Origin: Escherichia virus KFS-EC3
Direction: 5' to 3' (one strand)
Length of the DNA stretch: 64,000 bases
Sequence record: MZ065353.1
The notes beneath the pieces were generated by a model that was not told the DNA's origin, did no database searches, and saw nothing but the letters and a program-made list of their open reading frames with translations. This document shows, piece after piece, positions 2,936 to 5,147 of this stretch (position 1 is the stretch's first letter; the number at the start of each line of letters is the position of its first letter). Both the position numbers and the translations under genes were made by a program.

Positions 2936-3676
2936 ATGATTAGTGACTCTATGACAGTTGAAGAAATCCGTCTTCATTTGGGGCTTGCATTAAAGGAAAA
3001 AGATTTCGTAGTTGATAAAACTGGTGTTAAAACTATTGAAATTATTGGTGCATCATTTGTAGCAGATGAACCTTTTATTTTTGGCGCTCTTAATGATGAA
3101 TACATTCAACGTGAACTTGAATGGTATAAGTCTCAAAGTCTGTTTGTTAAAGATATTCCAGGTGAAACACCGAAGATTTGGCAGCAGGTAGCATCTTCTA
3201 AAGGCGAAATTAACTCGAATTATGGTTGGGCCATCTGGTCAGAAGATAACTATGCCCAGTATGATATGTGTTTAGCTGAACTTGGTCAAAATCCTGATTC
3301 TCGACGCGGTATCATGATTTATACTCGTCCATCCATGCAATTTGACTACAATAAAGATGGTATGTCAGATTTCATGTGTACGAATACAGTACAGTACCTG
3401 ATTCGTGATAAGAAAGTCAATGCGGTTGTTAGCATGAGAAGCAATGATTGCTGGGCAGGCTATCGTAATGATTATGCTTGGCAAAAATACGTACTAGATA
3501 AATTAGTATCTGATTTGAATGCAGGCGACCCATCGCGGCAATATAAAGCAGGTTCTATTATATGGAACGTTGGAAGTCTTCATGTGTACGAAAATCAGTT
3601 TTATTTAGTTGACCATTGGTGGAACACCGGTGAGACTCATATTGCTAAAAAGGATTATACTGGAAAATGGAAGTAA
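2936..3676 (+). CDS. 42: dCMP hydroxymethylase
   Basis: 246 aa, near-identical to T4 gp42 as recalled (MISDSMTVEEIRLHLG...). Confidence 0.95.
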   Translation: MISDSMTVEEIRLHLGLALKEKDFVVDKTGVKTIEIIGASFVADEPFIFGALNDEYIQRELEWYKSQSLFVKDIPGETPKIWQQVASSKGEINSNYGWAIWSEDNYAQYDMCLAELGQNPDSRRGIMIYTRPSMQFDYNKDGMSDFMCTNTVQYLIRDKKVNAVVSMRSNDCWAGYRNDYAWQKYVLDKLVSDLNAGDPSRQYKAGSIIWNVGSLHVYENQFYLVDHWWNTGETHIAKKDYTGKWK

Positions 3677-4308
3677 ATGTGCCACATGTTTATAAGTATA
3701 AACATCCTAAAACTAAAAAGTGGTATATAGGAAGTCATGATGGTCACAACCCGAATTATGATGGTTCGGGTGTAGTTTGGCAACATGCTAAAAAGAAATA
3801 TGGAATAAAATCCTTTAATAAAGAAATATTATATGAAGGACCAATGTTTAGACAGGTTGAAGAAATTATTTTAACTTGTTTAGATGCTGCTAATTGTCCG
3901 GATTCATATAATTTAAAGAATGAAGCATGGGGAGGAAGTTTTCCAGGCAAATTAAATGGAATGTACGGTAAAAAACTATCTCCAGAAGAAAGATATAAGT
4001 GCGGAAATGCCTTTCGTGGAATCAAGCGTCCTGATCATTCTAAAAGAATGAAAGGCGAAGGTAATCCAATGTATGGTAAAAATGAGCAGGCATATGGAAT
4101 TATAAATCGAGCCAAGGAAAATTCTGGTAAAACTTATGAAGAAATTTTTGGCGTAGAAAAAGCTAAAATAATTAAAGAAACGATGTCTAAAAATCGTAAA
4201 GGAAAACCTCATAATTTGATAGAAAAAATATGTCCGCATTGCGGACTAAAAGGACGTGGGCCAAATATGACAAGATACCATTTTGACAAATGTAAGGCAC
4301 TTAAATGA
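3667..4308 (+). CDS. GIY-YIG homing endonuclease-like protein (Seg-type) with NUMOD3-like repeats
   Basis: VYKYKHPKTKKWYIGSH...YDGSG motif; repeated G-K/R-x-S/N modules; C-terminal CPHC...C; overlaps 42 stop and downstream start. Confidence 0.75.
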   Translation: MEVNVPHVYKYKHPKTKKWYIGSHDGHNPNYDGSGVVWQHAKKKYGIKSFNKEILYEGPMFRQVEEIILTCLDAANCPDSYNLKNEAWGGSFPGKLNGMYGKKLSPEERYKCGNAFRGIKRPDHSKRMKGEGNPMYGKNEQAYGIINRAKENSGKTYEEIFGVEKAKIIKETMSKNRKGKPHNLIEKICPHCGLKGRGPNMTRYHFDKCKALK

Positions 4309-5147
4309 TTCAATTCGTAATTCCAAGCTATCAACGCGTAGGGGCAGTTTCTGCCCTTGATATGTTTCCGACTGATTATGAACCTCATATTGTAGTACGT
4401 GAACACGAAGAAAAAGCTTATTATGACGCTTACGGGTCTAGGGCTAAAATTATAACTATTCCTGATGATGTCAATGGAATTGCTGGTACTCGTAAAGCAA
4501 TTACTGATATGTATGCAGGTCAACGAATTTGGATGATTGATGATGATACTACTATTCGTATGAGTTCAATGCGAAAGAAAGATGATCGTCGCTGCGTAGA
4601 TAAAATTAATCAGTTAACTCGTGAACAGTTCTATGAATTGATTCAATACGTTGAAGATGCCATGGATTGCGGGTATTATCATGGTCATGCTCGTTTACCA
4701 ATTTTTAAAATTACTTCATCTTGGGGTAATTATCGTGAAAATTCATATGGATTCACGAATACTTGGTATGACCTCGGGAAACTTACAACAGAACAAATTG
4801 GGTATGGAAAAATTGATTTATGCGAAGATATGTATGCATTTCTCAATTTAATTAATCAAGGTTATCCGCATTTGGCCTTGTTCAAATATCTGGTTGTATC
4901 CGGAAAAGCGCAAGCTCCTGGTGGATGTAGTTCAATTCGTAGTAATTCAAAACATAATAGAGCTCTTGAGCAAATCAATAGAGAGTTTCCAGAGCAAGCT
5001 CGTTGGAAAACTTCTAATATTGAAAAACGAAAATCATTAGGTGAAGAAGACGAGCCATTAAAGGTTCTTCGCATGTGTGTTTCGCGCAAAGAAAAATCAG
5101 AAGCGTTTCATAAGTTTAATGCTATTCATCCAATAGCAGTTGATTAA
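4305..5147 (+). CDS. GT-A fold glycosyltransferase, probable DNA (glucosyl-)HMC glucosyltransferase
   Basis: 280 aa; VIPSYQR N-terminus and DxD motif IWMIDDDTTI; occupies T4 beta-gt locus between 42 and uvsX. Confidence 0.6.
   Translation: MIQFVIPSYQRVGAVSALDMFPTDYEPHIVVREHEEKAYYDAYGSRAKIITIPDDVNGIAGTRKAITDMYAGQRIWMIDDDTTIRMSSMRKKDDRRCVDKINQLTREQFYELIQYVEDAMDCGYYHGHARLPIFKITSSWGNYRENSYGFTNTWYDLGKLTTEQIGYGKIDLCEDMYAFLNLINQGYPHLALFKYLVVSGKAQAPGGCSSIRSNSKHNRALEQINREFPEQARWKTSNIEKRKSLGEEDEPLKVLRMCVSRKEKSEAFHKFNAIHPIAVD

Follow-up and report, generated by a model that had tools for sequence, protein, structure and literature searches.

A candidate Seg-type homing endonuclease gene beside gene 42 of Tequatrovirus phages and the gene 42 allele linked to it

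Introduction

In Escherichia virus KFS-EC3 (sequence record MZ065353.1), an open reading frame (ORF) of 213 codons lies between gene 42, which encodes dCMP hydroxymethylase, an enzyme of the thymidylate-synthase fold, and the glycosyltransferase gene ba-gt. What does this ORF encode, and which of its neighbours, if any, does it act on? We analysed a stretch of 64,000 nucleotides of the KFS-EC3 genome, hereafter the window, which has the gene order of a Tequatrovirus of the T2/T6/RB32 type: the 3′ end of gene 43, imm.1, imm, 42.1, gene 42, the ORF, ba-gt, uvsX, 40 and 41. The ORF occupies positions 3667..4308 of the + strand and starts with ATG, as described in an earlier interpretation made from the letters alone (the sequence-only reading), and the comparisons reported here bear out the proposal made there, namely that a gene resembling free-standing GIY-YIG homing endonucleases of the Seg type has been inserted between gene 42 and the glycosyltransferase gene. 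The gene is real, already loosely annotated and an uncharacterised member of the Seg type; what is new is its association with genes of the thymidylate-synthase fold and a concrete predicted target. We consider it probable that the ORF belongs to a clade of free-standing GIY-YIG homing endonuclease genes of the Seg type that is specialised on thymidylate-synthase-family genes, here gene 42, and that its predicted action is cleavage of the VVFGF-type allele of gene 42 followed by gene conversion.

Results

The ORF is a presence/absence polymorphism

A tblastn search found the ORF protein at an amino acid (aa) identity of at least 95% in 77 phage records, and in each of them the ORF lies between gene 42 and ba-gt; ba-gt itself occurs in 474 Tequatrovirus phage records, corresponding to an ORF frequency of ~16%. 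The gene is thus variably present among relatives. It is absent from T2, RB32, Sfk20 and four of the five loci returned by a scan of IMG/VR with ba-gt, in place of which annotated GenBank regions were used; in these phages the stop codon of gene 42 overlaps the ATG of ba-gt. T6 and T4 have the ORF-less pattern too. According to the sequence-only reading, T4 has no homing endonuclease at this locus, which holds for the junction of gene 42 and beta-gt but not for the whole interval from gene 42 to uvsX, since segA lies between beta-gt and uvsX. GenBank names for the ORF are inconsistent and comprise hypothetical, ‘SegD’, ‘similar to segC’, ‘segE’, ‘site-specific intron-like DNA endonuclease’ and ‘homing endonuclease’, of which the segD, segC-like and segE names are similarity labels only.

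A homologue shows the same polymorphism in Klebsiella phages of the genus Jiaodavirus, where, of 156 records, 13 match over at least 80% of a query that includes it, a count that may include cross-genus matches to Tequatrovirus phages such as Shinka. In the other Jiaodavirus records, gene 42 is joined directly to the glycosyltransferase gene.

A sharply bounded block of gene 42 is inherited with the ORF

We aligned seven ORF-carrying and seven ORF-less Tequatrovirus loci and found that all 38 fixed differences between the two groups fall within the last 240 bp of gene 42 (3437..3676, + strand). Upstream of 3436 and from 4305 on, there are no fixed differences, and divergence between the groups equals divergence within them. 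Identity over gene 42 separates ORF-carrying from ORF-less phages, and ba-gt identities interleave. The suggestion that the endonuclease could spread the adjacent glycosyltransferase allele along with itself did not survive this comparison: hitch-hiking of ba-gt is ruled out by the lack of fixed differences from 4305 on and by identities that do not sort by group, and the passenger that is linked to the ORF is instead the 240 bp at the 3′ end of gene 42.

The left edge of the block coincides with the Arg-Ser codons of the MRSND active-site motif. Here lies the first of three clusters of differences (3437..3466, + strand; codons R168–R177 of the gene 42 product, gp42), reading AGA AGC AAT GAT TGC TGG GCA GGC TAT CGT in KFS-EC3 and CGY TCA AAT GAC GTG GTC TTC GGA TTC CGT in ORF-less phages. 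It replaces R-S-N-D-VVFGF of the ORF-less type by R-S-N-D-CWAGY, includes synonymous switches (CGC TCA to AGA AGC) and is the predicted immunity version of the target site. The second cluster (3586–3600) encodes VY-ENQ in ORF-carrying phages versus VY-SRH in ORF-less ones, and the third comprises eight fixed differences in the last ~30 nt of gene 42. Cluster 2 was down-weighted as a discriminating site, because SRH is encoded there by endonuclease-linked gene 42 homologues (L026, L027) and because an ORF-less recombinant, Salmonella phage pSe_SNUABM_01, combines cluster 1 of the ORF-carrying type with cluster 2 of the T2 type.

Records with cluster 1 of the ORF-carrying type number 89; 85 have cluster 2 of that type, and the ORF itself is present in 77. 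All 77 ORF-carrying records cover at least 99% of a query spanning 3430–3800 and therefore each carries the whole tract; the reciprocal type, the ORF together with a T2-type cluster 1, was not seen among them. ORF-less phages include left-anchored partial tracts with at least four different right ends, located between 3478 and 3526 in pSe_SNUABM_01, at about 3580 in BYEP02, at about 3625 in EO1 and at about 3659 in PD112. This asymmetry is suggestive of a break near cluster 1, rightward repair from an ORF-carrying donor and selection against self-sensitive recombinants.

Among eight ORF-carrying phages, the ORF has a pairwise diversity of 0.9% and the tract one of 1.8%, compared with 3.7% in the 5′ part of gene 42, 4.5% in ba-gt and 2.7% in uvsX. 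Judged from these values, the profile is the pattern that a recently spread element in well-shuffled backgrounds would leave.

The block has nearly the same left edge in a second genus

Comparison of the Jiaodavirus carriers Roth77 and KP185 with the non-carriers Roth17, PKO111 and KpnM6E1 showed that no fixed difference lies within the first 500 nt of gene 42. Differences begin at the Ser codon of MRSND, where AGT/AGC ... TGC TGG GCA in carriers stands against TCx ... GTx GTC TTT in non-carriers, and run to the end of the gene. The left edges of the blocks in the two genera therefore lie within one codon of the same position.

At the Jiaodavirus junction of gene 42 and the glycosyltransferase gene, Roth77 and KP185 have the GIY-YIG gene and KpnM6E1 has an HNH nuclease gene (L042 1896–2420), so that one landing site is used by two nuclease classes. 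The HNH gene is also present in phage Metamorpho, and the gene 42 allele beside it is of the type that lacks the GIY-YIG gene. A further arrangement is found in the partial genome of Klebsiella phage vB_KpnM_GF (L013 2364–3098), where gene 42 breaks off after ...IIWN, at 214 aa as opposed to 246. Next comes, in a different frame, a remnant of the endonuclease gene covering its last ~30 codons (80% identity, aa 181–210), and then the glycosyltransferase gene; the arrangement reflects either a deletion in this phage or a fault in the assembly.

The constant partner is a thymidylate-synthase-fold gene

Homologues with 65–70% identity in Klebsiella phage Roth77 and Yersinia phage MHG19 directly follow gene 42, and the glycosyltransferase genes downstream of them differ. 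Metagenomic homologues (42–71% identity) were located directly downstream of a thymidylate-synthase-family (PF00303) gene on the same strand in all ten cases examined, surrounded by otherwise unrelated genes for glucosyltransferases, IMPDH, a helicase, NTP-transferases and small ORFs. Two more distant matches (E 3e-11 and 2e-5), which served as controls, are located elsewhere. With the PF00303 neighbour constant and the downstream genes varying, the constant partner of the endonuclease gene is the thymidylate-synthase-fold gene and not the gene downstream.

Three of the metagenomic contigs have additional features. L033, a phage contig, carries two thymidylate-synthase-family genes (25–894 and 2197–2940), of which the gp42-like copy (VWAGY), and not the one resembling ThyA, precedes the endonuclease gene. 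Further NUMOD3-containing ORFs lie less than 2 kb from the thymidylate-synthase-linked endonuclease gene in L031 (4743–5390) and L035 (257–1180), neighbourhoods that appear rich in homing endonuclease genes.

The protein has a GIY-YIG fold and a C-terminal CCHC module

The GIY-YIG N-terminus that had been proposed for the ORF protein was recovered by fold and not by Pfam. The protein matches PHROG 314 ‘homing endonuclease’ (2.3e-31) and has 70 homologues down to E 5.8e-4. The catalytic domain of I-TevI is the top Protein Data Bank (PDB) match of a profile built from 42 homologues (E 0.039); among these homologues, 27 match NUMOD3 and, at E ≤ 0.01, 14 match SegE_GIY-YIG (PF19835) and 6 match GIY-YIG (PF01541). 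An AlphaFold2 model computed on the homologue alignment (pLDDT 88.8) shows a beta-beta-alpha-beta-alpha arrangement over aa 7–72, and Foldseek assigned it to 1mk0 with a probability of 1.00, the three-stranded sheet and helices being superposable on the solved GIY-YIG domain.

The catalytic domain (aa 7–95; 3685..3951, + strand) contains the motifs VY9, Y20-I-G22, Y31-x-G-S-G35, K44, E65/E66, Y-N82 and G-G89. Its GIY-YIG pair, H-V-Y9 ... Y20-I-G22, has a Tyr-Tyr spacing of 11 that matches Y6/Y17 of I-TevI (the sequence used is identical to the annotated T4T protein); E65/E66 (VEEIIL) lie opposite the I-TevI ERE with the catalytic E75, and N82 (YN) lies opposite N90. Y20, G22, G33, N82, G94 and R203 are invariant in the alignment of 42 homologues, and Y9, Y31, S34, G35, K44, G46, C189, C192, H205 and C209 are nearly so.

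Beyond the catalytic domain, a presumed extended DNA-binding linker (aa ~97–183) contains one NUMOD3-like motif (aa 125–138; 4039..4080, + strand), which scores 18–19.3 bits against PF07460 with a gathering score of 20.4. The sequence-only reading had counted three such repeats; only the middle one is recovered by this sub-threshold match, and the first and third gave none. The C-terminal cysteine cluster noted there is a zinc-finger-like CCHC module (4222..4293, + strand) whose residues C189, C192, H205 and C209 are conserved across the family and which is absent from T4 SegA–G.

The block edge corresponds to the I-TevI cleavage region of td

The recognition sequences of homing endonucleases typically code for critical residues, a preference also described for the free-standing T4 enzymes, and the sites that I-TevI and I-BmoI cleave in thymidylate synthase genes are related. 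The I-TevI cut lies 23/25 nt upstream of the td exon-intron junction, in the CAACG of the Q-R codons. Exon 1 of T4 td ends with CAA CGC TCA GTA GAT GTT TTC TTG GGT, followed by the intron, and aligns with the gene 42 site, where ORF-less phages have ATG CGY TCA AAT GAC GTG GTC TTC GGA at the paralogous position. At the protein level, MRSND-VVFGF-RND of gp42 aligns with QRSCDVFLGLPFN of ThyA (Q-R-S-C-D-V-F-L-G-L-P-F-N in E. coli). The final Asp of the gp42 segment is residue 179 in the numbering of the alignment, the known specificity residue. On these alignments, the left edge of the block is homologous to the region of td that I-TevI cleaves.

We therefore predict a cut in the VVFGF-type allele near codons 168–176, ~230 bp upstream of the endonuclease gene; free-standing T4 endonucleases cut hundreds of bp away from their own genes. 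In a mixed infection, the enzyme would bind DNA through its extended NUMOD3-like and CCHC C-terminal region, and its GIY-YIG domain would break both strands of the ORF-less gene 42 allele, at or beside codons 168–176 (ATG CGY TCA AAT GAC GTG GTC TTC GGA TTC). The break would be repaired by copying the ORF-carrying genome, such that conversion tracts extending ~230 bp rightwards would bring the endonuclease gene across and shorter tracts would leave an immune gene 42 allele without it. The ORF-carrying allele would itself be immune because its site reads AGA AGC AAT GAT TGC TGG GCA GGC TAT. Within this explanation, nuclease activity, the exact target and the mechanism of immunity are the parts that we infer.

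A wider reading, which we put forward tentatively and hold to be somewhat less than an even chance, is that free-standing GIY-YIG endonucleases include an entire clade devoted to genes of the thymidylate-synthase fold, and that its spread would impose the change from VVF to CWA beside the catalytic Asp179 on an essential DNA-modification enzyme.

Discussion

Evidence against the proposal and alternative explanations

Several results weigh against an active endonuclease directed at cluster 1. The ORF protein itself has no match at E ≤ 1 to Pfam GIY-YIG (PF01541) or PF19835, and a single-sequence phmmer search of the PDB returned only a chance match to a sugar-binding protein, so that the homologue profile and structure prediction were needed to recognise the fold; TIGR01453 ‘group I intron endonuclease’ was matched with 24 bits, below its cutoff of 56.05. 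The catalytic R27 of I-TevI has no aligned Arg in the ORF protein, where the segment falls in a gap, although the same segment is gapped in all seven T4 Seg proteins, most of which are reported to be active. VFG/ILG-type sequence is found at the proposed site beside endonuclease genes in two distant homologue contexts (L030, L032). Some copies of the endonuclease gene are probably not functional, with frameshifts in those of Roth77 (L011 2989–3653), Shinka (+A in an A-run, window-equivalent position 4222) and REP2 (−A in an A-run, window-equivalent position 3970). Either the sequences are in error there, or these copies show the early decay that is typical of a homing endonuclease's life cycle. 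A scan for sigma-70-like promoters and terminators stayed at background (13 found, 11.1 expected) and revealed no dedicated promoter for the ORF. Our literature search found no study of the ORF protein or of an endonuclease at gene 42. Finally, the nested tracts are suggestive and no statistical proof, the records being phylogenetically related, and the block could partly represent a single import of foreign DNA in which divergence suppresses internal crossovers, with the 77 records being non-independent.

These points bear on two alternatives, both of which retain a real gene. An active homing endonuclease might instead target the gene 42/ba-gt junction, a site formed by the final codons of gene 42 and the beginning of the next gene, which the insertion would split as in intron-type homing, leaving the gene 42 tract as a scar of co-conversion or import. 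Consistent with this are the eight fixed differences at the very end of gene 42, the compact ATGA overlap of ORF-less phages that the insertion interrupts, and the HNH nuclease gene of KpnM6E1, which marks the same junction as a preferred landing site. A junction target would, however, be expected to produce left co-conversion tracts of variable length in ORF-carrying phages, and all 77 have the full tract from 3437; partial tracts in ORF-less phages are anchored at the left; the downstream genes differ in every homologue context, so that a half-site would not be conserved; and the left edge of the block lies within one codon of the same position in two genera. We consider a junction target unlikely on these grounds. 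We consider it equally unlikely that the gene is a decaying or domesticated endonuclease gene, imported once with a foreign piece of gene 42 from a Jiaodavirus- or Yersinia-phage-like donor and now passive or serving another role such as DNA binding or regulation, with no cleavage-driven spread in Tequatrovirus. The tract residues CWAGY and ENQ are indeed those of Klebsiella and Yersinia phage gp42, as one foreign import would have it, and the lack of an aligned catalytic Arg, the lack of a Pfam GIY-YIG match, the frameshifted isolates and a frequency of only ~16% all fit a relic. But diversity in the ORF is 4–5 times lower than in the fully shuffled flanks, which indicates recent horizontal spread into diverged backgrounds, and 12 of 17 distinct codon changes among six intact ORF copies are synonymous. 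Catalytic-core motifs are conserved in homologues down to 42% identity, ~12 ORF-less records (89 minus 77) have the site of the ORF-carrying type with no case of the reciprocal type, and polymorphism and boundary recur in the second genus.

A reading of the ORF as an artefact of annotation or as a frame open by chance, as the bare ‘hypothetical protein’ of many GenBank records might suggest, is already refuted by the high-confidence fold, the 70 homologues, the conserved synteny and the excess of synonymous changes, and we give it practically no credence.

Relation to known endonucleases

Under the preferred explanation, a free-standing endonuclease acting on gene 42, the nearest known counterparts are the T4 Seg endonucleases and the intron-encoded I-TevI and I-BmoI. 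The N-terminal 95 residues of the ORF protein share the Seg signature Y..(10)..YIG, YxGSG, KKYG, YN and GG; like the seg genes, the ORF is free-standing between conserved genes and polymorphic in presence among T-even relatives, and its putative target lies in an adjacent essential gene hundreds of bp off, as with SegA (uvsX), SegE (uvsW), SegF (gene 56) and SegG. Identity is 26–31% to SegA–E, 20% to SegF/SegG and 19% to I-TevI. No Seg protein is an orthologue: identity does not exceed 31%, the C-terminal halves are unalignable, the loci are others, and the CCHC module is absent from all seven.

The catalytic domain of I-TevI is the best structural match of the ORF protein. Shared with I-TevI, as also with I-BmoI, are a modular plan in which an N-terminal nuclease is followed by a presumably extended linker, with a putative NUMOD3-type element in the ORF protein, and by a zinc finger, and a target gene, predicted in the case of the ORF, of the thymidylate-synthase fold. 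The predicted site in the (M/Q)-R-S-x-D codons is at the position paralogous to CAACG in td. Unlike I-TevI, the ORF is free-standing and not within an intron, its zinc cluster is located at the extreme C-terminus and not in the linker, no helix-turn-helix domain was detected in its protein, and the predicted cut is ~230 bp from the gene, compared with 23–25 bp from the intron insertion site. The alternation of GIY-YIG and HNH genes at the Jiaodavirus gene 42 junction parallels SegH, Hef and MobE, endonucleases of different classes at one locus in the nrd region of T4-related phages; there, both the locus and the target gene are different ones.

The ORF would add to the T-even model system for homing endonucleases a new Seg-type family with a precise target prediction, would account for the mosaic block, with its sharp limits, that many therapeutic-candidate coliphages as well as Klebsiella phages have in their essential gene 42, and would supply a new GIY-YIG nuclease and DNA-binding module for engineering. 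The inconsistent GenBank labels (hypothetical, segC-like, segD, segE) can be corrected. Provided that the site is predicted correctly, the same active-site-coding sequence in the paralogues td and gene 42 has been a point of convergence or of divergence for GIY-YIG enzymes, which bears on target switching by homing endonucleases and on the origin of mobile introns. Should the tentative reading of a dedicated clade hold, a selfish element would drive protein evolution in the hydroxymethylcytosine pathway. Glycosyltransferase alleles show no apparent drive, and the element is therefore probably no vehicle for DNA-modification (anti-restriction) traits in this group.

Gene organisation and neighbouring features

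The overlaps at both ends of the ORF were correctly described in the sequence-only reading. Its start overlaps the end of gene 42 (2936..3676, + strand; TAA at 3674–3676), the inferred target gene, by 10 nt, and its TGA shares ATGA with the start of ba-gt (4305..5147, + strand). A GTG at 3679 was considered as the true start, from which the N-terminus would resemble the common MGYVYKY; it is disfavoured because PE37 has GCG at this position, and the closest homologues also start upstream, overlapping gene 42, which favours the ATG at 3667. No T4 late-promoter sequence TATAAATA was found near the ORF, which is probably transcribed by read-through from gene 42. A profile search of all ORFs of the window found no paralogue.

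The downstream gene ba-gt (beta-glucosyl-HMC-alpha-glucosyltransferase) is of the T2/T6 type and not T4 beta-gt (PHROG 842, 5.6e-89; Pfam TAGT), and is translationally coupled through the ATGA overlap in ORF-carrying and ORF-less phages alike. A hairpin with a 9-bp stem (TAGGGGCAGTTTCTGCCCTTG) followed by a T-rich stretch lies inside its 5′ end at 4339–4359, again in both kinds of phages; the fPS-2 and DalCa records have a ‘terminator’ annotated somewhere within the query span that holds this hairpin.

In pSe_SNUABM_01 (L018 3664–5047), uvsX is annotated with only 930 nt and followed by a ‘putative endonuclease’ gene; here, too, a homing endonuclease gene may have been inserted, with uvsX split or shortened as a result. 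Positions 1696–2130 of the window, between gene 43 and imm.1, form a variable small-ORF region with an open frame of up to 144 aa from TTG; T2 and ACG-C40 have an ORF of ~80 aa there and RB32 has none, and the region looks like another mosaic spot beside the polymerase gene.

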